Of a DNA stretch of 64,000 nt, positions 18,821-48,164 are shown in pieces. Source of the stretch: Arenicellales bacterium. GTDB taxonomy: Bacteria > Pseudomonadota > Gammaproteobacteria > Arenicellales > JAJDZL01. Under the pieces are notes generated by a model. It was given only the letters and a program-made list of their open reading frames with translations, had not been told where the DNA came from and searched no databases. Within the stretch, counting starts at the first letter, position 1, and each line of letters begins with the position of its first letter. The position numbers and the translations under genes are program-made. The DNA lies in NCBI GenBank assembly GCA_965116205.1, contig OZ220493.1:2485072-2549071 (forward strand), written 5' to 3'.

Positions 18821-18835
18821 GAACTGAAAACCTGA

Positions 18836-24874: not shown

Positions 24875-26386
24875 TTACCCTTCATTGTTCAAAAATGTCG
24901 GCTCAACTTTATGTTCAATCAGGTCCAGTATGGTTCGCGCGACGGTTTTTGCATTGGCGACTAGTGCAATTGCATGGTCTTGATCTTTCTGTTTTGCAAT
25001 ATACAACGCGCCTTCGTGAGTGCGAGACAACAATAGTCCAGCCTTTTGTTCTAACTCGGCATGGTTGATCTCAGAAGAAATAATTTCGTCATAAGTCATG
25101 CCATAACGAAATGGAATGGCACCGTCTAAATCTCGATACCAAGGATTGCCAAAGAAAAGAACCGCCTTGCCTTTGCAAATCGCTTCCCAACCGACTGTTC
25201 CGGTAACGGTGGCTACAAATTGTGAGTGGTCGAGCAATTCCTGCGTGTTGGCATAGGAAGGGACCAATCGCACCTGACGAATGCGAAACAGTCGGTTGAA
25301 GAACTGTGCACCCCGCATCGCGCCGGTTTGTTTGGGATTTTCCTTTACGAAAATTAAGCAGTCAGCGGGAATTATCTCCGCGAGTTTCTCAATGGCCAGC
25401 AACTGATCATAATAGTCTCCACCGATTGTCGATGTAGATAATTCCGGTTGTAGATGTAAAGGAAAATAAACGAACTTACAGTGCCAATCAATTTCAGACT
25501 TTTCAAAATCCAGTAGTGTTTCGAAATATGCGAGATGACGGATATGGAAAAATTTCGCAAATGGGTAACGCCACTTGGGAAGGGTGCTTGCTATGTGCCG
25601 CATTCGATTGATGCAATTAACCAAATATCGAGGATTAAATAGTTTGACCGGCGTAGAAGTTAACAGGTGACAGAACAGCGCGATGATGCCGCGTCCATCC
25701 AAAGAACCCAGTTGGCCCTGATACTGCTTAACACTAGACATATATCCCCACTCAATGGTTAGATTTTTGTCAATGGTGAGTGGCGCCACTGGTGGCTGAT
25801 CCGAATGTTCTCGTAGGCGGCCAAATTGGTCAAGGTCTCGAAGTGAAAAAAAGCGATTGATAAAAGGTGAAAAAGTGAGGATGATGGTTTGAATGCGCTT
25901 GGCTTTGGCAATGTGATAGGCGATGGTATCGTAGTAAAGGTGAGGAATATCGAAGAACAATACGACATTGATATGGTTACGTACCATATGGTCAGCCATG
26001 ATATCCACTACCAAATGGTAGTATTGCACCGCATCGTAGAACGTGTTGAGGTTGTTGTGTGACCACGCAAAGTTTTCCGTTCTTCGCTGTAGATGATCCA
26101 GACCCATCAGCACGGCTTCACTCAGCGCTTTGCTGTTCACCCAGTGTAACTCTCCCCCGGAGTACATTGAATCTTTTATGTTCAGACTTTTTTTTGTTTT
26201 TCGACGTTTAATCCGAGTTAACCCACTCATCACAATGTCAGCACCTCGTTTTCCAGCAACGTCAAATTGCGCTGATTTGGGCAGTTGATTTCTTAACTGC
26301 GAAACGATGGTTTGTAGCGTTTCATTGCTAGTACTGAATGCCAGAATGCACAATGCTCCGTCAGTCAACTCTGTTGTCGATTGCAT
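24875..26386 (-). CDS. Capsule-polysaccharide-biosynthesis-family protein, paralogue 3
   Basis: 503 aa with YFPLHLQPELSTS motif. It is collinear with paralogue 1 along its whole length. Confidence 0.55.
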   Translation of the reverse strand: MQSTTELTDGALCILAFSTSNETLQTIVSQLRNQLPKSAQFDVAGKRGADIVMSGLTRIKRRKTKKSLNIKDSMYSGGELHWVNSKALSEAVLMGLDHLQRRTENFAWSHNNLNTFYDAVQYYHLVVDIMADHMVRNHINVVLFFDIPHLYYDTIAYHIAKAKRIQTIILTFSPFINRFFSLRDLDQFGRLREHSDQPPVAPLTIDKNLTIEWGYMSSVKQYQGQLGSLDGRGIIALFCHLLTSTPVKLFNPRYLVNCINRMRHIASTLPKWRYPFAKFFHIRHLAYFETLLDFEKSEIDWHCKFVYFPLHLQPELSTSTIGGDYYDQLLAIEKLAEIIPADCLIFVKENPKQTGAMRGAQFFNRLFRIRQVRLVPSYANTQELLDHSQFVATVTGTVGWEAICKGKAVLFFGNPWYRDLDGAIPFRYGMTYDEIISSEINHAELEQKAGLLLSRTHEGALYIAKQKDQDHAIALVANAKTVARTILDLIEHKVEPTFLNNEG

Positions 26387-26552
26387 TTACGATACTTGTT
26401 TAGTTCTATTGCATGGCCACGCAGATCATTAACATCGGTCTGCAATCCGACCTGATCGCGCTGCCGGCTACTGATTTATAATTGATTGCAACTAAATCTC
26501 CAATGAGAACCTATCTCGCCTCTCGCCTTGAAACACCAAATGCTCAAGGCCA

Positions 26553-32530: not shown

Positions 32531-33955
32531 TTACCGTCCTTTGGAACGAGTTTTCTTCGGCATATACAAGTCTGTAATAGTGCCTTCGTAAGCCTCGGCG
32601 GCGAACCCCATCGTTTCCGATAACGTCGGATGAGGGTGGATTGTTAGTGCCAAGTCAGTGGCATCTGCGCCCATTTCAATCGCTAGCGCCGCCTCGGCAA
32701 TCAGTTCACCCGCATTTGCCCCCACGACTCCCGCCCCGAGCAGTCGTTTGGTCTTTGGGTCGAAAAGGAGTTTCGTCAAACCTTCAGAACGCGACATTGA
32801 CAGTGCTCGACCACTCGCCTGCCAGGGAAAGATACCCTTTTCGATAGGGATGTGATTGCGCTTCGCTTCATTTTCCGTCAATCCGACCCAGGCAACTTCA
32901 GGGTCGGTATAGGCCACTGATGGGATGAGTGAGGTGTCAAATCCAGACTTCATTCCAGCAATCACTTCGGCGGCTACTTTACCTTGGTGGGTTGCTTTGT
33001 GAGCCAGCATAGGTTGACCGGTGATATCGCCAATCGCATAAATGCCCTCTACGTTGGTGCGCTGTTGTCGATCAACGGTAATGAAACCGTGATCATCGAC
33101 TTGAACACCTGCTGAACTCGCGTTAATCAGACTACCATTAGGTGTCCGACCGACGGCAGTTAGAATCATGTCGAATTCTTCTTTCGTTGTACCCTCGTCA
33201 CCTACTAATTCGACAGTCAGTTTATCTTTATCGGCACTGACGGAGTTCACGCGGGTTTTCAGAAGTATTTGTTCATACTGTTTGTTAATTCTCTGTATGA
33301 GGGGTTTTGTCAAATCAGCATCGGCTTCGGCGATGAGATGGTCCAAAACCTCGACGACAGTAATGGCTGTACCGAGTTCGTGATAGACGGCACCAAGTTC
33401 CAAGCCGATGATGCCGCCCCCTATGATCAGCAAACGTTCAGGGATTTTGGCTAGGGACAGTGCACCTGTTGAATCGACAATTCTTGGGTCGTCCGGTAAA
33501 AAGGGTAGCGTGGTCGGGCGTGAACCGGCGGCGATAATTACATCTCGAAACGAAATCTGCATGACCTTTTCATCTTGCACGACCCGCAGTGTTTCTGCAT
33601 CTAGGAATTGTGCATGTCCGTTGACGACCTGCACCCCACGCTGTTTTGCCAGTACTTTCAGACCACCGGTCAACCGTCGAACTACTTTATCCGTCCACCG
33701 TCTCAGTTGGTCAGTATTCACATCAGGTTCCTGAAACACGACACCGCACTGCTTGAGTTCATTGGCTTCAAATATGACTTTAGCAACATGGAGCAATGCT
33801 TTTGAGGGGATGCATCCGACATTCAGACACACACCTCCTAACGTTGGATACCGTTCAATCAGTACTGTCTGTTTGCCCAGATCAGCTGCCCGAAATGCAG
33901 CCGTATAACCGCCCGGACCGGAACCCAATACAGCGACTTCAGTATCAATTTGCAT
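32531..33955 (-). CDS. lpdA: Dihydrolipoyl dehydrogenase (E3)
   Basis: GSGPGGYTAAFRAADLG FAD motif and the CLNVGCIPSK redox-active disulfide. 474 aa, downstream of aceF. Confidence 0.93.
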   Translation of the reverse strand: MQIDTEVAVLGSGPGGYTAAFRAADLGKQTVLIERYPTLGGVCLNVGCIPSKALLHVAKVIFEANELKQCGVVFQEPDVNTDQLRRWTDKVVRRLTGGLKVLAKQRGVQVVNGHAQFLDAETLRVVQDEKVMQISFRDVIIAAGSRPTTLPFLPDDPRIVDSTGALSLAKIPERLLIIGGGIIGLELGAVYHELGTAITVVEVLDHLIAEADADLTKPLIQRINKQYEQILLKTRVNSVSADKDKLTVELVGDEGTTKEEFDMILTAVGRTPNGSLINASSAGVQVDDHGFITVDRQQRTNVEGIYAIGDITGQPMLAHKATHQGKVAAEVIAGMKSGFDTSLIPSVAYTDPEVAWVGLTENEAKRNHIPIEKGIFPWQASGRALSMSRSEGLTKLLFDPKTKRLLGAGVVGANAGELIAEAALAIEMGADATDLALTIHPHPTLSETMGFAAEAYEGTITDLYMPKKTRSKGR

Positions 33956-34012: not shown

Positions 34013-35698
34013 TTAGAGCAGAATCCGCCGGGAATCGTACAGCAGTTCACAGACAAATTTCAAAAATCGTGCGGCTTCGGCGCCATCAATGACTCGGTGA
34101 TCATAAGACAGGGAAAGAGGGAGCATTTTTTTCCAAACAAACTCGTCGTTCCTGTCGGGAAAGAGTTGAAGTTGATGACGGCTGACTCCTAGAATGGCCA
34201 CCTCAGGTGGGTTGATGATCGGGGTAAAAAAGCGTCCACCAATGCCGCCAAGGCTTGAAATGGTGAAGCACCCACCTTGGAAATCAGTCGGTGTGAGTTT
34301 GCCTTCTCTGGCAGCCGAGCTCATTTGCTGTAGAACTTTTGCAATATCCAGGACTCCTAGATTCTGGATATTTTTTATGACCGGGACAACGAGTCCATTA
34401 GCCGTGTCAACGGCGACACCAATGTTGATGTACTTCTTAACAATCAGGCTTTGAGTATCGGTTGAGAGCGAAGAATTGAAGGTTGGATATTGCTGCAGTG
34501 CGTTGACGATCGCCTTACAAATGAAGGATAGAATGGTTACGCGCGTTCCGGTTGCTCTTTGTTCAGTATCAATTTCTTTTCTGAAATTATCCAGTTCTGT
34601 AATGTCGGCTTCATCATGATTGGTAACATGTGGAATGTCAAGCCAGGACCGGTGGAGGCGATCACCAGTCAACTTTCTGATTTTATTGAGTTTGACTGTT
34701 TCGAATTCGCCAAACTTAGAAAAATCAACTTCCGGAATTGGCGGCGGACCGAAATTCTGTCCCCCTTGAGATAATGAGGCATCGTCCAGTACTCCTTTGA
34801 TGTATTTAACGACATCGTCTTTAAGGATTCTGCCCTTTGCTCCAGTACCGCGAATTTGAGATAAATCAGCACCCAATTCTCTGGCGAAACGCCGCACTGA
34901 TGGACTGGCATGGAGTGTCATTCCCTTGGATCGTTCAACCGGCGGCGGTAGTGTTGGTGGAGGAGTCGGTGAGTGTTTCGCGCGGGTCACATGAACAAAG
35001 TCTCGAGCGTTTTCCTCAACGGAAGCTGGTGGAATTGATTCCACTGTAACCGATTCATTGCGCGGTGCCTGCGGGTAACCCTCGGTATCGGATTCATCCA
35101 ATTCGACAGTCAGCAGGTAATCATCTTTTGAAATCTCATCACCCAGTTTGACGCCCAACTCAGTAACTTTACCAGTGACCGGAGAAGGCACGTCCATGGT
35201 TGCTTTATCGCTTTCCAGCGTCAGTATCGAATCTTCAACGGCCAATACATCCCCGACTGCCACATGTACTTCGATGACTTCGACATCAGTAAAGTCACCA
35301 ATGTCTGGCAATCGTACTCGATGAAAATGATTGCTAGTGCTTTCCGCCTCAGTTTGATTGAGTCTGCTTGATTGCTGTCCGGTTATTTGACTGTCTAAAC
35401 TTTGTTCTGTCGATTCGTCAACTTGAGTCTCTCCTGAACTGCTGGGTACGATATCAACCGAAATCAGGTGGTCACCTTTTGAAATTTCATCACCAATTGA
35501 TACAACCATCTCTGCTACGGTACCTGAGACAGGTGAGGGTACATCCATCGTCGCCTTATCACTTTCAAGTGTGAGAATCGAATCTTCTGCCGCAATGGTA
35601 TCGCCAACACCGACGTGAATTTCAATGATTTCTACATTGAAAAAGTCACCGATGTCCGGGAGAAGCACTTTCTCTTGATGATGTGTCATAGAAGTCAA
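34013..35698 (-). CDS. aceF: Pyruvate dehydrogenase E2, dihydrolipoamide acetyltransferase (two lipoyl domains)
   Basis: Two repeats contain LESDKATMDVPSP (lipoyl-Lys). It also has a peripheral subunit-binding domain and the catalytic DHRVIDGA motif. Confidence 0.92.
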   Translation of the reverse strand: MTSMTHHQEKVLLPDIGDFFNVEIIEIHVGVGDTIAAEDSILTLESDKATMDVPSPVSGTVAEMVVSIGDEISKGDHLISVDIVPSSSGETQVDESTEQSLDSQITGQQSSRLNQTEAESTSNHFHRVRLPDIGDFTDVEVIEVHVAVGDVLAVEDSILTLESDKATMDVPSPVTGKVTELGVKLGDEISKDDYLLTVELDESDTEGYPQAPRNESVTVESIPPASVEENARDFVHVTRAKHSPTPPPTLPPPVERSKGMTLHASPSVRRFARELGADLSQIRGTGAKGRILKDDVVKYIKGVLDDASLSQGGQNFGPPPIPEVDFSKFGEFETVKLNKIRKLTGDRLHRSWLDIPHVTNHDEADITELDNFRKEIDTEQRATGTRVTILSFICKAIVNALQQYPTFNSSLSTDTQSLIVKKYINIGVAVDTANGLVVPVIKNIQNLGVLDIAKVLQQMSSAAREGKLTPTDFQGGCFTISSLGGIGGRFFTPIINPPEVAILGVSRHQLQLFPDRNDEFVWKKMLPLSLSYDHRVIDGAEAARFLKFVCELLYDSRRILL

Positions 35699-35759
35699 TG
35701 CGTTAATTTAATCAGGCGAGTTACTGTAAGTATAACTATCCACATAGTTGAACCCTAAC

Positions 35760-36608
35760 TCATGCCGGCATGCTGGGTTCATTTTTCATTCGCTTTCGGA
35801 ATGCCAATCGCTTAGGTATGCCTTGTGAAAGCAAAATATGTAACTTTTGTCCTAACATTTTGTTTTTGCCATGCCGCAGGTTCTGGTAGCCCATTTGCTT
35901 GATGTAATGATTATCAAAGGGCTCGTCGCCGAATGAATGATGCCTGCTACGCACGTACCGGAGGCCAGTGGGCGTCTGTGTGGGAGTGGTAGTAGTGCCG
36001 TGAAAAACCACTTGTGGTGATAGCATGTAAGTTTTTAACCCATTCATCCACCACGAATGCATGACCGTATCAACGACTTCGTTCATCAGTGGAAAATGGC
36101 TCAACAGACTTTTCATTGCCTCGGCAGTAATCACATAGCCTACGGCGCCGATTGAATCGTATCGGATGACACCGAGTATAAATTCTTCATTGAGTCTGTA
36201 TACAGGAATGATCGGATTTCTTGTTTTTCCGTTGTACAAAAAGACGATGTCAAAATCAAACATTCCTACGCTACGATCTAGGTTGTCGATGACGGATTGA
36301 GTCTCCTCTGCAAGACTACAGTCGTCTTCGAATACTGCAATGATACTTTCATTGTTCTGCAGTGCGGTCTGCCAGACTTTACGATGACTTAACCAACACG
36401 CCAATCCACCATGTACCAGCGGACGTTTCCATTTCCTTTGATTAGCTAGATACTTCGGGCAGACGTTATCTTGAATATCCTGATCACTAAGATCGCACCA
36501 GTCTATGCCTTTTGCAAACTCGAATTCAATCCCGGCCTTTGCGAATTGGCTGATCATCGTTTTTCGTCGTTCTGTGGCACGGTCTAGATTGATGACATAG
36601 CATTTCAA
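35760..36608 (-). CDS. Glycosyltransferase family 25, copy B (61 nt upstream of aceF, same strand)
   Basis: MKCYVINLDRATER and VFEDDC motifs, with tail GIPKRLAFRKRMKNE. It is about 60% identical to ORF 12687-13490. Confidence 0.8.
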   Translation of the reverse strand: MKCYVINLDRATERRKTMISQFAKAGIEFEFAKGIDWCDLSDQDIQDNVCPKYLANQRKWKRPLVHGGLACWLSHRKVWQTALQNNESIIAVFEDDCSLAEETQSVIDNLDRSVGMFDFDIVFLYNGKTRNPIIPVYRLNEEFILGVIRYDSIGAVGYVITAEAMKSLLSHFPLMNEVVDTVMHSWWMNGLKTYMLSPQVVFHGTTTTPTQTPTGLRYVRSRHHSFGDEPFDNHYIKQMGYQNLRHGKNKMLGQKLHILLSQGIPKRLAFRKRMKNEPSMPA

Positions 36609-36963
36609 TTTTCAGTCCTGTCTAGGTTAACCAACACTAGATATTCAGCAGGTAAATAAAACTCACTTATTCTGTTCCGAGAGATTTACAGTCAAAGCAT
36701 TACACCCAATCGAATAGAGTAGTTTTGACAGAAGTTTATTGAACGCTTCGAAAGAGTCAAGATTTTTCTAGGGGGTTGTTATTTCGACCAGTTCTAATGT
36801 TAAATATTAACTCGACATTTTAATCTGAACCATCTCTAGATTTTCCTGCATCTTTTCCTGCCGTTCGGATTCAGTTCAGTGTGGCATCTGTGAATACCTT
36901 AGCCGTCCTTAGTTATGGGAGTTCTGATTTATGTTAAAATTGAAATCGTTCAGTTGCTAATCC

Positions 36964-38547
36964 ATGCCAATGACCCGTCGTAAACTTCCGATCGGCACTG
37001 CCGCCTTCCGAAACATTCGAAGCCGAGGTTTCTATTATGTGGACAAGACACCACACATATGGAAACTAGTTGACGAAAGTGAATACTACTTTTTGTCCCG
37101 TCCGCGGCGGTTCGGCAAGTCGTTGCTGGTTTCCACATTAAAAGAACTGTTTGAGGGTAATGAGGTGCTGTTCCGTGGCCTCTACATCCACGACCGTTGG
37201 GACTGGGAGGTCAAACATCCGGTAGTGCGGTTGAGTTTTGGTGGCCGATTCAGCAAGTCGGGAAATCTCGACAGTAGCATCGTCAGTCAACTGGCAGACA
37301 TTGAAGAATTTGCCGGCATTGAACCGCCACCTGTGGCTCAAGCTGGACCAGATCGTCTGCGGAGACTCGTTCGACGATTGTATCGAAGCACCGGTCAGCA
37401 GGTAGTAATTCTGGTAGATGAATATGATCGTCCCATTCTGGATGTCATTGAGAACGAAGCGATGTCCCTTGAGAACCGAGACGGTCTACAGGGCTTGTAT
37501 AGCATCATCAAGGACTGTGCCGAGCAGCTGCGTTTCGTGTTCGTCACCGGGGTGAGCATGTTTTCCAAGGTCAGTCTGTTTTCGGGACTCAACAATCTTG
37601 AAGATATCAGTCTGGATCCTCAGTATGCCACCATCTGTGGCTATACGGATGACGACATCGACACGGTATTCGTCCCGGAACTGGAGGGGCTGGACCGGAG
37701 CAAGGTTCGTCAGTGGTACAACGGTTACAACTGGCGGGGCGAGAACGAGGACCGGGATAAGGTCTACAATCCGTACGACATTCTGTTGCTGTTCAAAAAG
37801 AAAAAGTTCGAATCTTACTGGTACAAGACCGGCACTCCGAAGTTCTTATTCCGGAAACTGCTGCAGTCAGAGACCAGTCTACATGAACTGGAACGGTGCA
37901 TCATCACCGAGCACGAGGTGTCGAAGTTGGATGTGGGTGAAGTGGGTCTGGAGGCACTGTTATTTCAAACCGGTTATCTGACCATCGTGTCAGAGGAACA
38001 GGTGGGTTTTAAAACCCTGTACACCTTGGACTATCCCAATGACGAGGTGCGCCAGAGTCTGAGCGATGGTCTGCTGGGGCACTTGGGACAGTCCGGGGGT
38101 GAGTCGACTGAATGGGGTCTGAAACTGTGTGAACTGCTCCGGTGCAATCAGTTTGATAAATTTGCCGAACACCTGCACTCCCATCTGTCGGGCATTCCGT
38201 ATCATTGGCGTAACAGCATCGCGCTGGCACGTTTTGAGGCGTGGTATGCGGGTCTGACGTATATGCTTTTCCAGGCAGTCGGTGTGGAGGTCAGGGCGGA
38301 AGAGGCATCCAGTCGGGGGCGTTCGGATCTGGTGATTCTGTATGGTGAACAGGTATTCGTGCTGGAGTTGAAGGTGGCGACGCGCGAAGGGCAAGTGGAG
38401 AAGAAGTTGAATCAGGCGCTGGTGCAGATACGCAAGCGCGGTGATGCGGACAAGTATCGACACCGGGAGAAGCCGATCCACCATCTGGCCGTGGTGTTCG
38501 GTTGGAAAGAACTGAATCGGGTAGCGATTAGAACAGAAAAAGCCTGA
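36964..38547 (+). CDS. AAA-ATPase-like protein with C-terminal PD-(D/E)XK nuclease domain (DUF1703-type), copy B
   Basis: FYYVDKT...YYFLSRPRRFGKSLLVSTLKELF N-terminus and GRSDLVIL...VFVLELK C-terminus. It is visibly more GC-rich than copy A. Confidence 0.8.
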   Translation: MPMTRRKLPIGTAAFRNIRSRGFYYVDKTPHIWKLVDESEYYFLSRPRRFGKSLLVSTLKELFEGNEVLFRGLYIHDRWDWEVKHPVVRLSFGGRFSKSGNLDSSIVSQLADIEEFAGIEPPPVAQAGPDRLRRLVRRLYRSTGQQVVILVDEYDRPILDVIENEAMSLENRDGLQGLYSIIKDCAEQLRFVFVTGVSMFSKVSLFSGLNNLEDISLDPQYATICGYTDDDIDTVFVPELEGLDRSKVRQWYNGYNWRGENEDRDKVYNPYDILLLFKKKKFESYWYKTGTPKFLFRKLLQSETSLHELERCIITEHEVSKLDVGEVGLEALLFQTGYLTIVSEEQVGFKTLYTLDYPNDEVRQSLSDGLLGHLGQSGGESTEWGLKLCELLRCNQFDKFAEHLHSHLSGIPYHWRNSIALARFEAWYAGLTYMLFQAVGVEVRAEEASSRGRSDLVILYGEQVFVLELKVATREGQVEKKLNQALVQIRKRGDADKYRHREKPIHHLAVVFGWKELNRVAIRTEKA

Positions 38548-38701
38548 ATCTTTCAAATGGTGTGGTCAAGAAAGGATTCAAGGAGTATCTCATTTTCCCA
38601 CTACAGAAGTATTTTTAATACCTGTCTACTAGACTTCTGCATTTACCTGTTGCAGAATACTCTTCAGCAAACAAATGTTGGACAGTATTTTTTGGAGCTG
38701 A

Positions 38702-40555
38702 TCAATCAATTTGAGGTTCATGATTAATGCAGTCTTTCAAAGTGGTGAAAATATCGCTGAAGTTAAGGAAGTCTTCTTTTGCACCATTTTTACACAGCCA
38801 ATCGCAGAGATTTCTTTTTTCATCTTTGTTTACTGCCCAAGTTTCTTTAATTTGTTTTTCCTCTCCTCTTTCTATCATAGGATGTTTCGGAGTGATATCA
38901 AAAAATTTCGAATTTTGTTCTTTGGCTTTTTCTAATGTTTCACAATTGAACAAATTTTCAATTCCTTTCACAATTGGGTTTTCATTGAAGTGAGGCATTT
39001 TCCGCTTGTAAATATTTTTATCATAACCATCGGTAAATTTGCTTTCTGGATCATGCAAAACAACAATAATCTGTTTAGCAGTCATAGAGATGTATTTACG
39101 ATTATTCCAAACTTTGTCGAGGGTACCTTTACCATTTGCCACCTGCACTTTATACTTTTCAAGGATATTTCTTTTATCAAGCAAATTCGCTGCGCACTTC
39201 AAGTAATCTTGGTCTATATCTCCTTCGACAAAAAGAATTGGACAGAGTGATTTCTCCGCTTCTGTTCTGACCCGACTTAAGAATTCATTAGTCTTTTCCA
39301 GCGCACTAAATGCCTGCCCAATTTCAGAAAACTGTTCTGGATTGATACGAGAACCATCTGGGAAATTATAAACCTCGAAACCTTCAATTCCGCACTCATT
39401 AACCATTCCGAGAACAAATGATGGTGAGTGCGTGGTCAAGATGAACTGGACCTTGGGAAACATGTGAATTAGGTTCGGAAGTATATGGTATTGATGATGG
39501 GAATGAAGGTGCAGGTCCACTTCATCAACAACTACAAGCCCTGATACGTCATCGGTAGAATTAAAAGTCACATTACGGCTTTCTCGTAAATCAAAATCTC
39601 TGAGTATGGATAGAAATAGTGTCAATAGTGTTATCTCGCCACTCGACAATTGGAAGAGATTAGGAACTATCTGATCGTTATCCGACATCAACGATATTCT
39701 ACGGTCGTGTCTTCCACCAATACCAAATCGAAATTTTCTCTTTGTGACAAGTGTCGACATGACAGCCTGCAAGACGGCTAATGCTGATTCGTATATATTG
39801 GTGGCAACACCCTGATATCCAAGAAATAAAGGTAATGCTATTGATTTATTTTCATCAATATTTTGTTTCATTTGGAAAGTGTTGAGTTCAAAAGCCATCT
39901 TGTCGAATACAACATCATACAACCAATCATGAATATTCTGAAGTGGTGAATAAGTAATTACCTGACGTGGAGTTTCACCATTGAAATGCAGGGTCTCCGT
40001 GTAACGAGGTTTTGCACGTAGATTATCTTTATTCAACCATGCGGGTTCCTCTCCACGGTTTGCAGGGAAATAGAGCAGGCAGTTGGCTGATACTAAGTTT
40101 GTTAATTCTTCGAGACGTGATGAATCATTGAAGTTGGAATCGAAATAGTCCATGTCGTTGTTGCTAAATGTCGCTTCCCAAACATCAAAATCATAGCCTT
40201 TTAGTCCGATTGGTGGCTGTTTATACATATACTTGGGTTGTTTCAGGCGAATTTCCCGTGTGTAAAACTCCGATTGGAAATCACATTGGGCACAATAATA
40301 TTCAGCGTCGTTAGATATATAGGAATTACTGCGTAATTTAAATACTCTCTCGTTATCCAATTCACGGGATTCTTGATAAACTGAATCCTTAGCCAAAACC
40401 ATGCCATTTACTATGTGAGAAAGAGCTAGAGTTTTCCCAGACCCGTTCTTTCCGACAAATAAAACAGGTTTGGGGCATTCATTCTCGAAAGGAAATTCAA
40501 TTTTCAGGTTTTGGAGCACTCCATAATTCTTGATTTGAAGTCGTTCTAAATACAT
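38702..40555 (-). CDS. ABC/SMC-type ATPase with C-terminal Toprim-like domain (OLD-family / fused PARIS-like candidate)
   Basis: Walker A GKNGSGKT, signature-like LSSGEITLL, Walker B LVVVDEVDLHLH and H-loop TTHSP. The C-terminal ILFVEGDIDQDYL resembles the Toprim/DUF4435 acidic motif. The gene is very AT-rich. Confidence 0.55.
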   Translation of the reverse strand: MYLERLQIKNYGVLQNLKIEFPFENECPKPVLFVGKNGSGKTLALSHIVNGMVLAKDSVYQESRELDNERVFKLRSNSYISNDAEYYCAQCDFQSEFYTREIRLKQPKYMYKQPPIGLKGYDFDVWEATFSNNDMDYFDSNFNDSSRLEELTNLVSANCLLYFPANRGEEPAWLNKDNLRAKPRYTETLHFNGETPRQVITYSPLQNIHDWLYDVVFDKMAFELNTFQMKQNIDENKSIALPLFLGYQGVATNIYESALAVLQAVMSTLVTKRKFRFGIGGRHDRRISLMSDNDQIVPNLFQLSSGEITLLTLFLSILRDFDLRESRNVTFNSTDDVSGLVVVDEVDLHLHSHHQYHILPNLIHMFPKVQFILTTHSPSFVLGMVNECGIEGFEVYNFPDGSRINPEQFSEIGQAFSALEKTNEFLSRVRTEAEKSLCPILFVEGDIDQDYLKCAANLLDKRNILEKYKVQVANGKGTLDKVWNNRKYISMTAKQIIVVLHDPESKFTDGYDKNIYKRKMPHFNENPIVKGIENLFNCETLEKAKEQNSKFFDITPKHPMIERGEEKQIKETWAVNKDEKRNLCDWLCKNGAKEDFLNFSDIFTTLKDCINHEPQID

Positions 40556-40749
40556 GTAACCAAATTCTCTAGATTTTTAGATTATCGTTATTGCTTTATT
40601 GAGCATCTTGGTGGCTACGGAATGTACTTACTTTGTCAAAACGGGTGCTTTCTACTGACATCATCCACTTCAAAGATGACCACGTTACGACTCTCATTCT
40701 TTCCTTTCAAGAGTATCTTATCAATAGAAGACTAAGTAATTGAATTTCT

Positions 40750-43416
40750 TTATGTGGTCAATGGGTCTGGCTTTTCCGGATCAATGTCTAGTTTTTGTAT
40801 GGCCTGCTTCACTTTATTGGCAGCTATCTTCCCCTCCTCCTTTAGAGCATGTAAGGCCGTTGCTACGATGTGATTTCGATTGACTTCGAAGAATTGACGC
40901 AGATTGGCTCGCGTGTCAGATCGCCCAAATCCATCCGTGCCCAGAACATGGTAGTTTCTCGGCACGAATCCGCGAATCTGATCGGCATAAACCTGCATGT
41001 AATCGGTAACCGCAATGACGGGTCCGACTGTATCTTCCAAGCACTTCTCAACATAACTTTTGCGCCGCGTAGCAGTGGGATGCAGACGATTCCAGCGACT
41101 GGCGGAGTGTCCCTCACGGGCCAGTTCATTGAAACTCGTCGCGCTCCATACATCGGCCGCTACGGCATATTCTGATTCAAGAATACCTGCCGCCACAATC
41201 ACTTCCCGCAGAATGGTACCACTACCCAATAGCTGTACGCGAAGTTTCCGTTTCGAAGGGGACTTCTGAAGCAGATACAGACCCTGCAAAATTCCTTCTT
41301 CGACACCCTTGAGCATGGGTGGATGAGCATAGTTTTCATTCATACAGGTAATGTAGTAGTAGATTGCTTCATCCTGTTGGTACATACGCCGCAGACCATC
41401 GTGAATGATGACCGCCAGCTCATAAATGAAAGTTGGGTCGTACGCAACACAGGTCGGAATCGTGGACGCCAGTACGTGGCTGTGCCCATCCTGGTGTTGT
41501 AGTCCTTCACCCGCAAGCGTGGTTCGACCAGCGGTGCCACCGATCAGAAAACCACGTGCCAAGATATCCGCCGCGGCCCAAGTCAAGTCTCCAACTCGTT
41601 GAAAACCAAACATGGAGTAGAAGATATAAAATGGAATCATACGAATACCGTGATTGCTACCCGCAGTGCCAGCCGCAATCCAAGAGCAGACCGCCCCGGC
41701 TTCATTAATACCTTCCTGCAATACCTGTCCTTCTTTGGATTCTCGATAAAACATGAGTTGATCTGAATCTTCAGGTTGATATAGTTGCCCAAATGGGGAG
41801 TAGATTCCCAATTGCCGAAACATGCCTTCCATGCCAAAGGTACGACTTTCATCAGGAACAATTGGTACGATATTGCGGCCGATTGCCTTGTCTCGAATGA
41901 GCGCTGTCAGGATTCTGACAAAACCCATCGTTGTCGAAACTTCGCGGCCATCGGTGCCTTTGAGTTGTGCCGCAAAAATATCAAGATCTGGAATTTTGAG
42001 TGTACCGGGAATCTTTCGTCGTGCCGGCAGAGCACCCCCTAGTTTCTGGCGCTGTTTCAGCAGATATTGAATTTCCGGACTGTCTTCGGGTGGTCGATAA
42101 AATGGTGCCGAGGCCACTTCCTCATCAGTCAGTGGGATTCTGAAGCGGTCACGAAACGAGATCAGTGCCTCTTCGCCGATTTTTTTCTGTTGATGAGTGA
42201 TGTTCTGCCCTTCACCGGCTTCTCCCATGCCGTAGCCTTTCACCGTTTTGGCTAAAATGACGGTAGGTTGATCGGTGTGTTTTACCGCGGCTGCGTAAGC
42301 CGCATAGATTTTGTGTGGGTCGTGGCCCCCTCGATTCAACCGCCAAATATCCTCATCCGTCATGTTCGAAACCATTTCACGCAGCTCATCATACTTGCCA
42401 AAAAAGTGTTCTCGAGTGTAGGCGCCGCCTTTGGCTTTGAATGCCTGGTACTCACCATCCACAGCTTCTTCCATCCGCCGTTTCAACAGTCCTTTCGTGT
42501 CGCGCATCAATAGAGGGTCCCAGTAAGAACCCCAAATCAGTTTAATCACATTCCAACCGGCGCCACGGAACTCGCCTTCCAGTTCTTGGATGATTTTGCC
42601 GTTACCTCGAACTGGACCGTCTAGGCGCTGTAAGTTGCAGTTCACGACAAAAATCAGATTGTCCAATTTTTCCCGCCCGGCGAGCGATAGGGCTCCCATG
42701 GATTCCGGTTCGTCCATTTCACCATCCCCCACAAAGACCCACACTTTACGATTGGAAGTGTCACAGAAACCACGGTTATGTAAATATTTCATAAACCGGG
42801 CCTGATAGATCGCCATGATGGGTCCCAGTCCCATAGAAACGGTGGGAAATTGCCAAAACTCCGGTTTGAGTCGAGGATGGGGATAGGAGGGCAGGCCATT
42901 ACCATCCGTTTCACGTCTGAAATTATCCAGGTCATTTTCGCTTAGACGCCCTTCCAGAAACGCCCGTGCGTAAACTCCCGGCGCTGAGTGTCCCTGAAAG
43001 AAGATCAGGTCACCGCCATGGGATTCACTCGCCACGTGCCAGAAGTGATGAAATCCAACATCGTATAGGGTGGCTGACGAGGCAAAACTAGCGATATGTC
43101 CGCCTAGTTCACTGGAAGTGCGATTGGCTCGTACCACCATCGCTAGGGCGTTCCAGCGAATCAGTGAACGGATGCGCCACTCAAGGGCGTGGTCACCGTT
43201 ACTTCTTTCTTCCTGAGTCAGACCAATGGTATTCAGATACGCAGTAGTGGGGCGATGAGGGATATGAACACCGGAGCGGCGCGCACTATCAATCAGTTTT
43301 TCAATGAGAAAGTGAGCCCGCTCATGGCCTTCTCGTTCAATGACACTGGCAAGGGCATCAAGCCACTCTTCCGTCTCGAACGGATCAACATCGCGTAAAG
43401 TCTTATCATCAGGCAT
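40750..43416 (-). CDS. aceE: Pyruvate dehydrogenase E1 component (homodimeric type)
   Basis: 888 aa and collinear with AceE (DPFETEEWLDAL..., GHIASF, GDGEMDEPES ThDP motif). Confidence 0.93.
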   Translation of the reverse strand: MPDDKTLRDVDPFETEEWLDALASVIEREGHERAHFLIEKLIDSARRSGVHIPHRPTTAYLNTIGLTQEERSNGDHALEWRIRSLIRWNALAMVVRANRTSSELGGHIASFASSATLYDVGFHHFWHVASESHGGDLIFFQGHSAPGVYARAFLEGRLSENDLDNFRRETDGNGLPSYPHPRLKPEFWQFPTVSMGLGPIMAIYQARFMKYLHNRGFCDTSNRKVWVFVGDGEMDEPESMGALSLAGREKLDNLIFVVNCNLQRLDGPVRGNGKIIQELEGEFRGAGWNVIKLIWGSYWDPLLMRDTKGLLKRRMEEAVDGEYQAFKAKGGAYTREHFFGKYDELREMVSNMTDEDIWRLNRGGHDPHKIYAAYAAAVKHTDQPTVILAKTVKGYGMGEAGEGQNITHQQKKIGEEALISFRDRFRIPLTDEEVASAPFYRPPEDSPEIQYLLKQRQKLGGALPARRKIPGTLKIPDLDIFAAQLKGTDGREVSTTMGFVRILTALIRDKAIGRNIVPIVPDESRTFGMEGMFRQLGIYSPFGQLYQPEDSDQLMFYRESKEGQVLQEGINEAGAVCSWIAAGTAGSNHGIRMIPFYIFYSMFGFQRVGDLTWAAADILARGFLIGGTAGRTTLAGEGLQHQDGHSHVLASTIPTCVAYDPTFIYELAVIIHDGLRRMYQQDEAIYYYITCMNENYAHPPMLKGVEEGILQGLYLLQKSPSKRKLRVQLLGSGTILREVIVAAGILESEYAVAADVWSATSFNELAREGHSASRWNRLHPTATRRKSYVEKCLEDTVGPVIAVTDYMQVYADQIRGFVPRNYHVLGTDGFGRSDTRANLRQFFEVNRNHIVATALHALKEEGKIAANKVKQAIQKLDIDPEKPDPLTT

Positions 43417-43765: not shown

Positions 43766-45058
43766 ATGTTGAGTGAACAGGCGCGACAGAGTCTGCAACA
43801 ATTTGTGGATCGTTCTGACAAGGAATACGCGCTGTACTTCGTCGGCCGGCATGACGTCATTGCCGGAATTGAGAAAACGGTCGAGCAAATGCAACAGTTG
43901 ATTGCCGGTCGGAATGTCACTGAGCTAATCGAATCCGCGGCCATCCTGTCGGATCAGCGCACCTGGCTGGTGCAGGGGGCACCGGGAGCCGGTAAGACGG
44001 CTTTACAGAGTCATCTGCGACAGATGTGGGAAAAGCGACCAGATGGACCGATTACCATCGGTTTGGCACCCGGTGAACTGGAAGACGAGACTGCACTTGA
44101 GCAAAAGATCGCATACATCATTAGGAAGCAGTATGAAGTTCCGGCGGATCGATTCTGGAAAGCTGCATTGGCAAGCGCATTGAAGTCACTGGGCAGCAGT
44201 TTAGGGTTCAAGATGCGGCAAACCAAACGGCGAGGCACGCTCATAAATCTGTGGCAGTTGTTCGACCATGGTTGGTTCAATTTCATTCTAGAACGTCTGC
44301 CTGCAAAATTCAATGCCAAGCCACGACAACTGCGTCCGATCGTTTTTATGATTGATGAGATACAGAGTCTACAACCGCCGAGTGAAAAGCTGTTAATGCA
44401 ATTACATCTTGGCCAGACTGGATTGCCGATTGTTATGGTGCTGGCTGGTCTCGCCTGGTCGGAGTCGCGTCTATCCAAAGCGGGGATCTCCAGATTCAGC
44501 CACGGACACGTGCAGACGCTGGCGCCGCTGACCAAAGCGGAGGCGGCCGAGGCGGTGCATCGCCTGCTGCAGGAGCATGACATCGAAGGATACCAAGACG
44601 CTGACATTGTCGTAAAGATCGCGGTGTGGTCGAATGGTTGGCCACAACATCTACACAACTACATGCGTGCGCTGGCGGCGGAGCTGCTGCGTACGGACGG
44701 GGACTTACCTCAAGTCGACGAAGTCAGAGTTCACGAGATGGGTGATGCAGATAGAAAAGATTACTATACGAGACGATTGAACCATTCCAAAATCAGTGTT
44801 TGTAAAAATCTGCTAGCCGATGTCGCTGAAATGATTGGCGAACATGGAGTCGATGAATCGGAGCTGCTGTATCTGCTTCGTGATCGATCTTGGGATAAAC
44901 GCAGCTATCCGACAGATACCATGCCTCAAAGCATGAAACCGCAGGAATTTATTGATGAAATGATCAAAAATGGCATGACCCACAAGGTAGACAGTTACAT
45001 TACCATACCAATTCCGTCATTCCGCCAGCATCTGGTTGATAGACGATTGAACCGCTGA
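43766..45058 (+). CDS. STAND/AAA_16-like NTPase with C-terminal winged-helix-like region, copy B
   Basis: YFVGRHD, Walker A QGAPGAGKTALQ, Walker B VFMIDEIQ, SNGWPQHL, and C-terminal ITIPIPSFRQHLVDR. It is collinear with ORF 13716-15038. Confidence 0.65.
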   Translation: MLSEQARQSLQQFVDRSDKEYALYFVGRHDVIAGIEKTVEQMQQLIAGRNVTELIESAAILSDQRTWLVQGAPGAGKTALQSHLRQMWEKRPDGPITIGLAPGELEDETALEQKIAYIIRKQYEVPADRFWKAALASALKSLGSSLGFKMRQTKRRGTLINLWQLFDHGWFNFILERLPAKFNAKPRQLRPIVFMIDEIQSLQPPSEKLLMQLHLGQTGLPIVMVLAGLAWSESRLSKAGISRFSHGHVQTLAPLTKAEAAEAVHRLLQEHDIEGYQDADIVVKIAVWSNGWPQHLHNYMRALAAELLRTDGDLPQVDEVRVHEMGDADRKDYYTRRLNHSKISVCKNLLADVAEMIGEHGVDESELLYLLRDRSWDKRSYPTDTMPQSMKPQEFIDEMIKNGMTHKVDSYITIPIPSFRQHLVDRRLNR

Positions 45059-45305: not shown

Positions 45306-48164
45306 TCAGGCAACGTTTGCTTCAGGTACAGCCAAAATTTTGGATAAGCAGCGTCCGGTATGTGAAGCATCATTTCCCGCTACGGCTTCAGGGGTACCTG
45401 CGGCGACAATATAACCACCTTCTTCACCACCTTCCGGTCCCAAATCTATGATCCAGTCGGCGGATTTGATGATTTCCATGTTGTGTTCAATTACAATGAC
45501 CGTATTGCCGCGGTTGCGTAATTCAAGGAGTACGGACAACAGTTGTTTGATGTCTTCAAAATGCAGACCGGTGGTTGGTTCATCAAGTAAGTAAAGGGTA
45601 TTGCCAGTATCCTTTTTTGACAGTTCTAACGACAGTTTAATACGTTGAGCCTCACCACCGGATAAAGTCGTGGCACTCTGACCGAGTTGAATGTAGTCAA
45701 GTCCCACTTCTTTGAGTGTTTGAAGTCGACGGGCGATGGGTGTGATTGATTCGAAAAGTTCCAAAGCTTCACTGATCGAGAGGTTCAGAATTTCAGAAAT
45801 GTTATATCCCCTATAGGTGATCTCGAGTGTTTCTCGATTGAAACGAGTGCCATTACACACTTTGCACCGCACAAACATATCCGGCAAGAAATGCATTTCA
45901 ACCCTGACCATACCATCTCCTTTACATGATTCACAACGTCCGCCAGGCACATTGAATGAAAAACGACCGGGTTTGTAGCCGCGCGACCGGGCCTCAACCG
46001 TTTTCGCAAAAAGGCTCCGTAGGTTACCGAACAGTCCGGTATAGGTGGCTGGATTAGAGCGCGGTGTACGTCCAATCGGCTGTTGATCAATCCGAATGAT
46101 CTTATCAATCAGTTCAAGACCTTGAATGCTGTCATATTCGGCAGCATTTTGCTTGGCGCGGTTCAGTTTGGAGGCAACGGCCTTGTACACCGTTTCATTG
46201 ATCAGCGTGGATTTACCGGAGCCGGATACGCCGGTTACACAGCAGAACAGTCCGAGTGGAATATTGACATTCAATCGCTTCAGATTATTTCCGCGTACAC
46301 CTTCGATCCTTAACAGGTGAGTTGGGTCGTAAGCCACTCGGGTCTGGGGGATGGGTATTTCTTTTCTGCCACTGAGGTACGCACCGGTCAATGAACTTGA
46401 TGATTTTTCAACGTCTTTTGGGGTACCGGCCGCCACAACATGCCCACCATTCGCACCGGCGCCGGGCCCTAAATCAACGACATAGTCGGCATTTCGTATC
46501 GTATGTTCATCGTGTTCGACTACTACCAGTGTGTTACCCATGTCCCGTAGACGATGCAACGTGTTGAGCAGCCTTTGGTTGTCCCGGTCGTGTAGACCGA
46601 TGGAAGGTTCGTCAAGTACATAAGTCACGCCAACCAATCCCGAGCCCACTTGCGAAGCCAGCCGGATACGTTGCAACTCACCACCGGAGAGTGTATTGGT
46701 GGCGCGGTCCAACGTTACATAGGTTAAGCCGACACTGGCGAGAAACTGTAATCGCGTTTGAATGTCACGAATAATTCGCTCGGCTACGGTATTGGCATGT
46801 TCGACGTAGGCAATGGATAGAAACCAGTTCAACACTTGGCTGACATTCATGCGAGTGATGTAATGAATCGGTTTTCCATGAATGAACACGTTTCTTGAAC
46901 TCATGGATAATCGACTGCCGTCGCATACTTCACAGGGTTGAGTCTGTAGGTACTTTGATAGGCTTTCGCGTACTGCATCGGAAGTTGATTCCTGTATACG
47001 CCGTTTAAAGTTGGGAATGACGCCTTCAAAGGGCCGCATGCTCCGGTAGGTTTTACCGCTGTCGCTGAGATATCGCATTGAAATTTTCTGTTGACCGCTG
47101 CCATACAGTACGACCTCCTGTATTTTTTCCGGTAATTTTTCAAATGGTTGTTCCAGATCGAACTGATAGAATTTAGCGACTGATTCCAACATGCTGTAGT
47201 AGTAGCGGTGGCGCACGTTCCATTCCGCGAGTGCACCCATTGCAATACTAAGTTTTGGATTGACGACAATGCGTTCTTCGTCGAATTGCGAGGTGTAACC
47301 AAGACCGTTGCAGTTTGAACAGGCACCCTTAGGATTGTTGAAGGAAAAAATGCGAGGTTCCATCTCATCAAGAGTATAGCCGCAGTAGGGACAGCCATAT
47401 TGGGTGCTATACACTTCACCTTCATGAGCAATCGCACCGTCCTGAGTGACTTGACAGCAGGTTACCAAGCCGTTCGATAATTGGGTTGCGCTCTGAATCG
47501 AATCCGCCAAACGCTGCCGCACTGCCGGTTTGATGACGAGTCGGTCAACCACGACATCGATGGTATGAATGGTATTTTTGTCTAACTTTGGCACTGATTC
47601 GATTTCGTAAATTTCTGAATCAATGCGAACTCTGACATAGCCCTGTCTTCTGAGGTCGGCAATGATCTGCTCGTGTTCACCTTTGCGGCTGCGAATGATA
47701 GGGGCGATCAACGCAATTCGGGATCCCTCTGGCTTAGCTAGAATCAGATCGACAATTTCTGAAATGGGTTTTGCCATCAGCGCGACTTTATGTTCAGGAC
47801 AACGTGGTTCACCGACACGCGCGTAGAGCAGCCGAAGATAGTCGTAAATTTCGGTGACCGTACCGACCGTCGAACGAGGACTGAAACGTGTCGTTTTCTG
47901 GTGAATGCTGATGGCTGGCGATAAACCCTCGATCGAATCGACGTCAGGCTTGTCCATTAACGATAGAAACTGTCTGGCGTATGAGGAAAGCGATTCGACA
48001 TATCGACGTTGTCCTTCGGCATAAATCGTGTCATAAGCGAGCGACGATTTTCCTGAACCTGAAAGGCCGGTAACGACATTCATGCAGTTACGGGGAAGTT
48101 CTACAGAGACATTTTTGAGGTTGTGCGTGCGTGCGCCTCTGACTGTAATCTTGTCCGTGTTCAC
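45306..48164 (-). CDS. uvrA: Excinuclease ABC subunit A
   Basis: 952 aa with two ABC modules ([18 protein letters not shown]) and CxxC zinc modules. Confidence 0.95.

Follow-up and report, generated by a model that had tools for sequence, protein, structure and literature searches.

We analyzed a 64,000-nucleotide stretch of DNA (here, the window) from an uncultured marine gammaproteobacterium of the order Arenicellales. It carries the pyruvate dehydrogenase genes aceE, aceF, and lpd, with three other genes lying between aceE and aceF. The genes and spacers of the region are as follows.

32531-33955, minus strand: lpd, E3 component (TIGR01350, 503 bits)
34013-35689, minus strand: aceF, E2 component, counted from its ATG (TIGR01348, 583 bits; Pfam domains)
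35690-35759, minus strand: spacer of 70 nt from the GT25 gene to aceF
35760-36608, minus strand: GT25 glycosyltransferase gene, 282 aa, TTG start, co-oriented with aceF (PF01755, E 2e-29)
36609-36963: divergent intergenic region, 355 nt, AT-rich, GC about 0.40
36964-38547, plus strand: AAA-ATPase_like and PDDEXK_9 gene (AAA-PDDEXK), 527 aa (PF09820, E 3.5e-57; PF08011, E 2e-15)
38548-38701: spacer of 154 nt where the AAA-PDDEXK and OLD-like genes converge
38702-40555, minus strand: OLD-like ABC-ATPase/Toprim-like gene, 617 aa, co-oriented with aceE (Pfam AAA_21/AAA_15)
40556-40749, minus strand: spacer of 194 nt from the aceE stop codon to the start of the OLD-like gene (alignment with relatives)
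40750-43416, minus strand: aceE, pyruvate dehydrogenase E1 (TIGR00759, 1451 bits)
43766-45058, plus strand: uncharacterized P-loop NTPase gene, 430 aa (weak AAA_16/AAA_22 matches)
45306-48164, minus strand: uvrA, the backbone gene upstream of aceE (conserved synteny)

The open reading frames of the operon genes and of the three inserted genes lie where a preliminary description had placed them. Its gap of 61 nt between the GT25 gene and aceF holds for an aceF frame opened by TTG (34013-35698); translation more likely begins at the ATG at 35689, which yields a protein of 558 aa and a gap of 70 nt. Both aceE and aceF are intact on the minus strand, and Pfam recognizes two lipoyl domains, an E3-binding domain, and a catalytic domain in the aceF product. 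Each of aceE, aceF, and lpd is full-length and matches its equivalog model, so that the three would, judging from sequence, still have to be expressed. The E. coli-type operon has the order pdhR-aceE-aceF-lpdA. The window keeps the order and orientation of aceE, aceF, and lpd, but the genes are not contiguous: about 5.05 kb, including a gene on the opposite strand, separates aceE from aceF, no pdhR is visible, and uvrA and aceE are themselves separated by an unrelated NTPase gene.

We compared 160 aceF loci, about 147 of which have enough upstream sequence to be informative. aceE directly adjoins aceF in at least 140 of these, which confirms the adjacency that the preliminary description had taken as the norm, and it is missing within 10 kb of aceF only in L001, L067, and L112. 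Spacers between the two genes are 12 to 41 nt in outgroup Arenicellales (12 nt in L169, 33 nt in L002, and 35 nt in L003; L004 is also tight). Together with a short spacer in the close relative L164, these tight outgroups bear out the earlier proposal of genes inserted in a once-contiguous cluster, and the sequence comparison supports an insertion of the three genes into an ancestrally contiguous aceE-aceF-lpd cluster.

The junction was then followed in the window genome and five close relatives (L164 to L168), whose aceE is 83 to 88% identical to that of the window (88% in L164); one intermediate outgroup was also examined. In all five relatives, aceE is preceded by uvrA and aceF is followed by lpd, with serS next in all except L168. 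The synteny uvrA-aceE-aceF-lpd-serS-rarA-lolA-ftsK is shared by L002, L164 to L167, and L169, while L168 diverges after lpd. The content of the aceE-aceF junction in the relatives is listed below.

L164: empty, spacer of 121-130 nt
L165: PIN_3 and RHH_6 toxin-antitoxin pair, antisense, 1.5 kb
L166: HTH gene and a GT25 gene different from that of the window, sense, 1.5 kb
L167: AbiLi-like (E 1e-53) and NsnB-like (E 2e-45) ATPases and a 147-aa gene, antisense, 4.1 kb
L168: six metabolic genes, sense strand, 6.2 kb

The window and its five relatives thus present five unrelated cargoes and one empty spacer, and the cargoes have no DNA similarity to one another except within the GT25 coding sequence. 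The insertion is not peculiar to this genome, since four of the five close relatives carry unrelated cargo at the junction. Although L164 and L166 share 91.5% DNA identity, they differ exactly in the content of the aceE-aceF spacer: their alignment shows homology up to the aceE stop codon and again from 10 nt before the aceF ATG. Homology between the window and its relatives likewise ends at the aceE stop codon, and the last ~25 nt of 35690-35759 resemble the aceF translation-initiation region of the relatives, among which there is no conservation upstream of aceF beyond about 25 to 50 nt. Cargo GC is 0.39 to 0.43, compared with 0.49 to 0.51 for aceE (0.433 and 0.506, respectively, in the window). 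In this small sample, the aceE-aceF junction is occupied in five of six genomes. The uvrA-aceE, lpd-serS, and serS-rarA junctions are each occupied in one of the six, and the aceF-lpd, rarA-lolA, and lolA-ftsK junctions in none; the aceF-lpd spacer measures 56 to 60 nt in the window and in every in-group relative.

These patterns make it likely that the aceE-aceF junction is a recurrent insertion hotspot in one Arenicellales subclade rather than the site of a one-off event, with aceE as its conserved upstream (5') flank and aceF as its downstream flank. With five close relatives and one intermediate outgroup, its turnover rate and number of independent events are rough estimates. The alternative that the interrupted layout is ancient and fixed in the lineage, with no insertion at all, draws on L001, whose aceF is the closest to that of the window in the genome collection and likewise has no aceE within 10 kb upstream. 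That layout reflects rearrangement and not the exchange of a cassette, and the comparison of relatives did not recover the same interrupted layout with conserved orthologs: the cargo differs, L165 to L168 lack orthologs of the OLD-like and AAA-PDDEXK genes, and the junction is uninterrupted in L164 and tight in the outgroups, all of which makes a fixed layout very improbable. An assembly or binning artefact, with a chimeric join inside the operon, might be suspected of sequence from an uncultured organism whose proteins are recorded on one 3.33-Mb contig. However, synteny with relatives extends for more than 10 kb on either flank, independent assemblies of other samples have insertions at the same junction, and every boundary open reading frame is intact, so that we give this explanation almost no weight.

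We also considered how many acquisitions the window cargo represents. The preliminary description had treated the segment as one 5-kb insertion, and a single mobile island that brought in all three genes at once would agree with their contiguity and with a segment GC below that of aceE. This explanation is improbable, as GC3 differs strongly along the insertion (0.351 in the OLD-like gene, 0.616 in AAA-PDDEXK, and 0.484 in GT25, with core genes at 0.43 to 0.50), no other locus compared has two of the three genes together, and the GT25 and AAA-PDDEXK genes each have a separate paralog elsewhere in the window. Pfam detects no integrase, recombinase, or transposase domain in the insertion, no tRNA, tmRNA, or other Rfam match occurs in the window, and computation agrees with the earlier inspection by eye in finding no flanking direct repeats, or inverted repeats, longer than expected by chance. 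With no integrase or transposase, att or terminal repeats, or tRNA, an integrative mobile element (genomic island, prophage, or transposon) was rejected. Composition and gene content instead suggest that at least two separate acquisitions, and probably three, built up the window cargo as a mosaic.

The GT25 gene product scores 103.3 bits against PF01755 (gathering score, 24) and probably acts on surface polysaccharide. Its TTG is the only in-frame start, while homologs begin with ATG. A paralog of 55% identity lies at 12687-13490 in the window, and the closest homologs (59%) occupy a different site, capsule-ftsK, in L162. 

It is possible, though doubtful, that the GT25 slot is ancestral, a GT25 gene having opened the junction in the in-group ancestor and its alleles having later been swapped or lost, with the OLD-like and AAA-PDDEXK genes added afterwards in the window lineage. 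Such a history would refine the hotspot model rather than compete with it. The GT25 genes of the window and L166 lineages both lie directly upstream of aceF and co-oriented with it, at distances of 70 and 84 nt, respectively, and the host-like GC3 of the window copy suggests long residence. However, the two proteins are only 46 to 48% identical and fall into different clades of a neighbor-joining tree, in which the window copy groups with that of L162 at capsule-ftsK, and L164, the sister of L166, has neither a GT25 gene nor a visible remnant of one.

The AAA-PDDEXK protein belongs to a multicopy accessory family: a paralog of 53% identity is encoded at 5174-6736 in the window, and 67 plasmid records carry homologs, frequently with multiple copies per record. 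Searches of PADLOC, NCBIfam, and PDB sequences with this protein returned no match.

The OLD-like protein belongs to a well-populated family of its own, whose members are about 620 aa long and which gave more than 1,600 matches at 43 to 61% identity; its gene has a GC of 0.378. Over residues 1 to about 400, the best matches in both sequence and structure are Septu PtuA and retron-associated PtuA ATPases, and in sequence this ATPase resembles PtuA and AriA more closely than OLD. PtuA models of PADLOC match at E 9e-31 over the ATPase part only, the best 25 PADLOC matches listed consist of PtuA models and one ATPase_I-A model, and the single NCBIfam match is PtuA at 88 bits, far under the 500-bit cutoff. 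An AF2 model of the protein (pLDDT 81) has a Foldseek match to PtuA (E 5e-15). The ABC motifs G35-K41, D344-E345, and LSSGE at 303-307 are invariant or nearly so in the family alignment.

The C terminus had been described as Toprim-like, a reading that sequence models do not detect and predicted structure favors. Toprim models of Pfam give no match to it even at E ≤10, nor do any OLD/Toprim models of Pfam, NCBIfam, or PADLOC. On the other side, an AF2 model of residues 406-617 (pLDDT 93) best matches a retron Eco2 chain (E 1.9e-5, TMq 0.53) and also, weakly, the C-terminal regions of the OLD proteins 6nk8 and 6njw (E 0.01-0.04). A profile of the family also hits TsOLD 6p74 (E 0.009), in an alignment that spans the ATPase-to-Toprim junction, and the acidic residues E444, D448, D502, and E533 are conserved in the family alignment.

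Class 1 OLD nucleases, such as P2 Old and Thermus scotoductus OLD, are stand-alone proteins with an ABC ATPase and a Toprim domain (PMC10568477, PMC7049728). The window gene, too, is a stand-alone gene, whose product joins an N-terminal ABC ATPase to a predicted C-terminal Toprim-like domain, but curated OLD models miss it and its ATPase is nearer PtuA and AriA. It differs from Septu or retron PtuA in having no PtuB/HNH or reverse transcriptase neighbor and in possessing a predicted Toprim-like domain of its own. A Septu (PtuA-PtuB) system was rejected because no PtuB/HNH gene adjoins 38702-40555; the neighbors, aceE and AAA-PDDEXK, include no UvrD-like helicase or reverse transcriptase, and Rfam finds no retron noncoding RNA. 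From sequence and structure models, we regard the OLD-like protein as a candidate single-gene anti-phage nuclease. A 61% homolog, P0002 in L081, has a neighborhood of defense-type genes (SMODS, SLATT, AbiEi, DUF6602, and a transposase).

Across the hotspot, cargo is defense-like in the window (OLD-like), in L167 (AbiLi-like and NsnB-like), and in L165 (the PIN/RHH toxin-antitoxin pair). No complete known or validated defense system was recognized among the cargoes, in which PADLOC matches span only the ATPase part. Since the cargoes of L166 and L168 are not defense-like, calling the site a defense hotspot would overstate its character.

Repeated insertion between aceE and aceF implies that aceF-lpd would be transcriptionally independent in this clade. 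The preliminary description had expected the convergent gene ends at 38547 and 38702 to block read-through, which was not borne out: a terminator scan there found none, and the folding of 38548-38701 yields z scores of -0.19 and -0.05 on the two strands, or about 0. The only feature in this spacer lies on the plus strand at about 38656-38697, where an AU-rich hairpin precedes U6. The promoter proposed earlier within 36609-36963 is plausible, with one sigma-70-like match (TTGACT-16-TAAACT at 36760-36733 on the minus strand, 9/12), but promoter-like matches in the region overall are no more frequent than in shuffled sequence. We consider 36609-36963 a candidate promoter region for GT25-aceF-lpd on the minus strand and for AAA-PDDEXK on the plus strand. 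A weak promoter-like match (TTGATA-17-AAGAAT) at 40724-40696, in the spacer between aceE and the OLD-like gene, does not amount to evidence of function, and promoter and terminator scans of 35690-35759 gave no match. The scans, with promoters at chance level, thus found no convincing promoter or terminator for aceF-lpd. Relatives with antisense cargo beside aceF (L165 and L167) have at least 336 nt of noncoding sequence upstream of aceF, which is consistent with a local promoter.

We propose that a short aceE-aceF spacer became a site of accessory gene gain, loss, and replacement in one Arenicellales subclade. In the window, the GT25 gene, with its host-like GC and its position directly upstream of aceF, would probably be the oldest resident, the high-GC3 AAA-PDDEXK gene a separate acquisition on the opposite strand, and the low-GC OLD-like gene probably the most recent arrival. 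An initial illegitimate insertion may have been followed by swapping of cargo through homologous recombination in the flanking core genes, a combination that has been proposed for core-gene-flanked hotspots; no site-specific machinery is visible at the junction. aceF-lpd would be independent of the aceE promoter in this clade and, in the window, most likely cotranscribed with GT25 from 36609-36963, while a separate transcript upstream may cover aceE and the OLD-like gene.

The spacer might be more than a passive gap, namely a dedicated cassette-exchange locus, either targeted by an unrecognized site-specific mechanism or favored by selection as a place for certain genes. The cargo limits, which lie exactly at the aceE stop codon and 10 to 50 nt before the aceF start, could be read in this way, as could the landing of a GT25 gene twice, in the window and in L166, at one position and in one orientation; we consider such a locus unlikely. 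If its selection version were true, surface-modifying and defense genes would come under strong constitutive pyruvate dehydrogenase transcription, and the cargo would supply or capture a promoter for aceF-lpd.

A recurrent hotspot at this site has known counterparts. cDHS1 and cDHS2 of Pseudomonas aeruginosa are core-gene-flanked hotspots whose content varies between related genomes, with no obvious mobile element class and with cargo that is lower in GC than the core and includes defense-type genes (PMC10250203). The aceE-aceF site shares the constant flanks, the variable lower-GC cargo with defense-type genes, and the lack of an obvious element class. In contrast, it lies inside a canonical, normally cotranscribed metabolic operon, neither between independent transcription units nor beside a tRNA or tmRNA gene. 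Its cargoes are small (1.5 to 6.2 kb, whereas the cDHS1 median is 26 kb; PMC10250203), only some of them are defense-like, and our sample comprises five relatives and the window genome, compared with thousands of genomes for cDHS1 and cDHS2. The site is a further example of the known core-gene-flanked hotspots, unusual only in lying inside an operon, and the new point is that the aceE-aceF junction is a hotspot in this clade.

A central-metabolism operon that is contiguous in the textbook form can evidently withstand repeated interruption between its first and second genes by genes on either strand. The empty, sense, antisense, and mixed cargoes form a natural series for studying operon splitting and promoter capture. 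As highly conserved anchors, aceE and aceF could retrieve variable and partly defense-like cargo from metagenomes with uncultured marine Gammaproteobacteria, and the cargo already includes a large uncharacterized OLD-like ATPase/Toprim-like family.

The P-loop NTPase gene at 43766-45058 is a second, separate insertion on the opposite strand, between uvrA and aceE. The uvrA-aceE spacer is 1892 nt in the window, compared with 129 to 136 nt in L164 to L168, and a paralog of this gene, at 42% identity, lies at 13716-15038 in the window.

The ORF map of the window agrees with the gene coordinates of the preliminary description around aceE and aceF, and its genes run as follows:

45306-48164, minus strand: uvrA (ORF map)
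43766-45058, plus strand: gene for a 430-aa P-loop NTPase (AAA430), between uvrA and aceE (ORF map)
40750-43416, minus strand: aceE (TIGR00759, 1451 bits; Pfam/NCBIfam)
38702-40555, minus strand: gene for a 617-aa ATPase (AAA_21/AAA_15), here the OLD-like gene
36964-38547, plus strand: gene for a 527-aa protein with AAA-ATPase_like and PDDEXK_9 domains (AAA-PDDEXK), between the ATPase gene and GT25
35760-36608, minus strand: GT25 gene (PF01755)
34013-35698 per ORF list, minus strand: aceF (TIGR01348)
32531-33955, minus strand: lpd (TIGR01350)

All three PDH genes of the window (aceE, aceF, and lpd) are intact and full-length, and the likely start of aceF is the ATG at 35689, with a protein that begins MTHHQEKV…

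To compare this layout with other loci, we retrieved 80 genome and 80 metagenome loci with the window aceF and then located aceE in each. Under a strict test aceE abuts aceF in 130 loci, and about ten more are also adjacent, their aceF alignments lacking just the lipoyl-domain portion, so that adjacency is indeed the norm, as initially assumed; 13 loci are too short upstream to be judged. In only three of the 160 (L001, L067, and L112) is there no aceE within 10 kb. The best matches to the window aceF are all Arenicellales metagenome-assembled genomes, which places the organism in this order, and the metagenome scan returned no close relatives (best identity, 53%). In three more distant Arenicellales loci (L002, L003, and L004), aceE and aceF are spaced by 24-41 nt, and L002 carries the full backbone uvrA-aceE-aceF-lpd-serS-rarA-lolA-ftsK, which is the window order minus the accessory genes. 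L001, whose aceF (73% identical) is the nearest in the genome collection, continues from aceF into the same lpd-serS-rarA-lolA-ftsK order, with no aceE within 10 kb upstream. This locus may represent a rearrangement with its breakpoint at the same aceE|aceF junction. At positions 7577-10006 and upstream, L001 has first a 2.4-kb ORF-poor stretch (GC 0.52, overlapping minus-strand ORFs) and, beyond it, P450/GPP34, kinase, MFS, and DUF3830 genes in place of aceE.

A protein search with the window aceE recovered a group at 83-88% identity, and we compared the aceE contexts of six relatives, five from the in-group (L164-L168) and one intermediate outgroup (L169).

Content of the aceE|aceF junction in six relatives, with aceE identity to the window
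L164, 88%: empty, 121-130 nt spacer
L165, 87%: PIN_3 and RHH_6 pair on the opposite strand, ~1.5 kb (aceF start corrected to 14211)
L166, 87%: 101-aa HTH gene and GT25 gene, both on the sense strand, 1.5 kb
L167, 86%: 403-aa AbiLi-like ATPase (PADLOC E 1e-53), 460-aa NsnB-like ATPase (E 2e-45), and 147-aa gene, all antisense, in one 4.1 kb interval
L168, 83%: six sense-strand metabolic genes (FA_hydroxylase, panB-like, DUF6166, DctP, DctM, and PhyH), 6.2 kb
L169, 80%: empty, 12-nt spacer

The junction is occupied in five of the six in-group genomes, the window included. Elsewhere along the backbone, aceF|lpd measures 56-60 nt in every genome of the junction table, lpd|serS is occupied in L167 only and serS|rarA in L166 only, and uvrA|aceE spans ~130 nt in the relatives versus 1892 nt in the window. 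Given this variable content and the near-constancy of the other junctions, the aceE|aceF junction is a hotspot of gene turnover in the window's subclade. L164 and L166 are 91.5% identical in DNA; their homology reaches the aceE stop codon and restarts 10 nt ahead of the aceF ATG, which leaves this spacer as the exact difference between them. The cargoes have no DNA similarity to one another except in the GT25 coding sequence, and their GC content is 0.39-0.43 in the window and L165-L167 versus 0.49-0.51 for aceE; that of L168 is nearer its core (0.474 versus 0.509). The proposed insertion between aceE and aceF is thus upheld by tight outgroups and by relatives whose junction is empty or holds other cargo. 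The suggested comparison among relatives uncovered no conserved interrupted layout, as cargo differs across L165-L168 and is absent from L164. The L167 insert at lpd|serS is 1.5 kb, and L166 has a 361-aa gene between serS and rarA (18756-19841). We also observed that aceF encodes two lipoyl domains in the window and in-group (550-558 aa) and a single one in the two more distant relatives, L168 (19241-20578, 445 aa) and L169 (12683-14038, 451 aa).

The preliminary description had viewed the cargo as one ~5-kb insertion, a reading that fails on composition and boundaries. GC3 differs gene by gene, at 0.351 for the OLD-like gene (GC 0.378), 0.616 for AAA-PDDEXK (GC 0.524), and 0.484 for GT25 (GC 0.449), with core genes at 0.43-0.50. 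A domain search of the cargo region found no integrase or transposase, the whole window has no tRNA or Rfam match, and a computed search for flanking direct or inverted repeats returned chance-level matches only, in line with the earlier inspection by eye. The window cargo is not one element, and a recurrent mosaic hotspot, of which this arrangement is one state, describes it better than a single 5-kb insertion does. Alignments of the aceE 3' and aceF 5' flanks define no common insertion point, and the spacers can be aligned no farther than ~25-50 nt upstream of aceF. Cargo would plausibly be exchanged via homologous recombination in the flanks. Two of the three cargo families, as well as the uvrA|aceE NTPase, have second, divergent copies elsewhere in the window:

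5174-6736: AAA-PDDEXK copy, 53% identity
12687-13490: GT25 copy, 55% identity
13716-15038, minus strand: AAA430 NTPase copy, 42% identity, directly upstream of the GT25 copy

These copies lie in a second variable stretch (4600-15300), which also holds a SoFic-like Fic/DUF4172 gene (8128-9258, PADLOC E 1.4e-38) as well as short ORFs with methyltransferase or MBL domains, which may be fragments. A scenario in which an inversion or duplication connects the AAA430-GT25 tandem at 12.7-15.0 kb with the members of these two families that flank aceE was rejected: a single inversion, wherever placed, would reverse aceE with respect to uvrA and aceF, and no such reversal is seen.

The nearest known concept is the core-gene-flanked hotspot, exemplified by the core defence hotspots of P. 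aeruginosa, whose flanking core genes stay constant while their content varies, whose GC is lower, and which cannot be assigned clearly to a mobile-element class (PMC10250203). The aceE|aceF site shares all of these defining features. Three things set it apart: its position within an operon whose genes are ordinarily adjacent, the small size of its cargoes, and a content that is defence-like only in part. Full-text searching of the literature for a hotspot at aceE/aceF yielded no relevant result. The site is a new example, at an unusual place, of a known phenomenon.

The convergent gene ends at 38547/38702 had been expected to block read-through, an expectation left unsupported since the terminator scan is empty there and folding of the convergent spacer is unremarkable (no significant structure, z ~0); the plus strand of this spacer shows its only feature, an AU-rich hairpin with U6 after it. 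The scan likewise found no terminator between GT25 and aceF. In relatives, aceE|aceF cargo lies on either strand; where it is antisense beside aceF (L165 and L167), at least 336 nt of noncoding DNA remain upstream of that gene, and there is weak conservation over the final ~25 nt leading to the aceF ATG. These observations fit a putative local promoter for aceF-lpd in this clade; the simplest case for the window would be co-transcription of aceF-lpd with GT25 from within 36609-36963. The region 35500-41000 contains nine sigma-70-like sites versus 10.5 expected, one of which (TTGACT-16-TAAACT at 36760-36733, minus strand) falls within the 355-nt divergent stretch preceding GT25. In neither the window region nor L164 did the promoter scan exceed chance, and alignments of the aceE 3' and aceF 5' flanks define no conserved promoter.

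The 617-aa protein belongs to a large family of ~620-aa proteins (1624 matches), with 43-61% identity over the full length among the matches listed. Its N-terminal 400 residues form an ABC ATPase whose nearest match, according to PADLOC, a PDB sequence search, and Foldseek (E 5e-15), is PtuA. The C-terminal 200 residues have no Pfam match, and the model of residues 406-617 (pLDDT 93) best matches a retron Eco2 chain (E 1.9e-5, TMq 0.53) and next the C-terminal regions of OLD proteins (E 0.01-0.04). The family profile reaches Thermus scotoductus OLD across the ATPase-to-Toprim boundary (E 0.009), and E444, G445, D448, D502, and E533 are invariant or nearly so. On the PtuA-type ATPase, the C-terminal model matches, this profile match, and the conserved acidic residues, we call the protein OLD-like, with an ATPase and a predicted Toprim-like domain encoded by a stand-alone gene. 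This arrangement corresponds to the Class 1 OLD layout (PMC10568477); however, the protein is recognized by no curated OLD model and is therefore not filed as an OLD family member. Two other assignments were rejected: PARIS (fused AriA-AriB), with no DUF4435/Toprim Pfam match and weak AriA profile matches, and Septu, with no PtuB partner. We infer a defence role for the OLD-like protein. Its 61% homolog in L081 (P0002) sits among SMODS, SLATT, AbiEi, DUF6602, and transposase genes, and weaker homologs occur on three plasmids. The L081 cluster (6819-17722), where P0002 adjoins purH, purD, and purE, comprises DUF6602, AbiEi_4, a SMODS gene interrupted by a DDE transposase, AGS_C, and SLATT.

The closest homologs of the window GT25 are 59% identical, and one of them lies in L162 between a capsule-synthesis cluster and ftsK. 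L162 has the same ftsK-lolA-rarA-serS-lpd-aceF block, and its lpd and serS are nearly identical (98%) to those of L167. The GT25 that L166 carries at aceE|aceF shares only 46-48% identity with that of the window and falls in a different clade of a neighbor-joining tree, which together indicate that, in two lineages, two different GT25 genes have the same placement and orientation immediately upstream of aceF. This reflects either an old slot with its alleles replaced or two arrivals. The window GT25 starts with TTG (TTGAAATGCTAT, 36606-36608) and four aligned homologs with ATG (ATGAAATGCTAT or close variants), which suggests weaker translation initiation in the window. The aligned GT25 upstream regions show no conservation. 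A polysaccharide cluster adjoining ftsK (window 15300-26400) is common to L162 (1826-8681) and includes an epimerase, a DegT aminotransferase, and three paralogous genes homologous to Capsule_synth genes; in L162, GT25 and a Methyltransf_21 gene are inserted between it and ftsK.

AAA-ATPase_like/PDDEXK_9 is a recognized Pfam architecture, and AAA-PDDEXK homologs are found on 67 plasmid records, often with multiple copies on the same record; the protein has no PADLOC, NCBIfam, PHROG, or PDB sequence match. AAA430 is inserted at uvrA|aceE. Its protein has no plasmid match, no PDB sequence match below E 0.78, and only weak matches to AAA_16/AAA_22, PHROG, and PADLOC (mad8, E 1e-4). A homolog at 23-26% identity lies between lpd and serS in L167 (20029-21339), called as two genes and possibly frameshifted, and the AAA430 family is present at several different intergenic sites of the same backbone.
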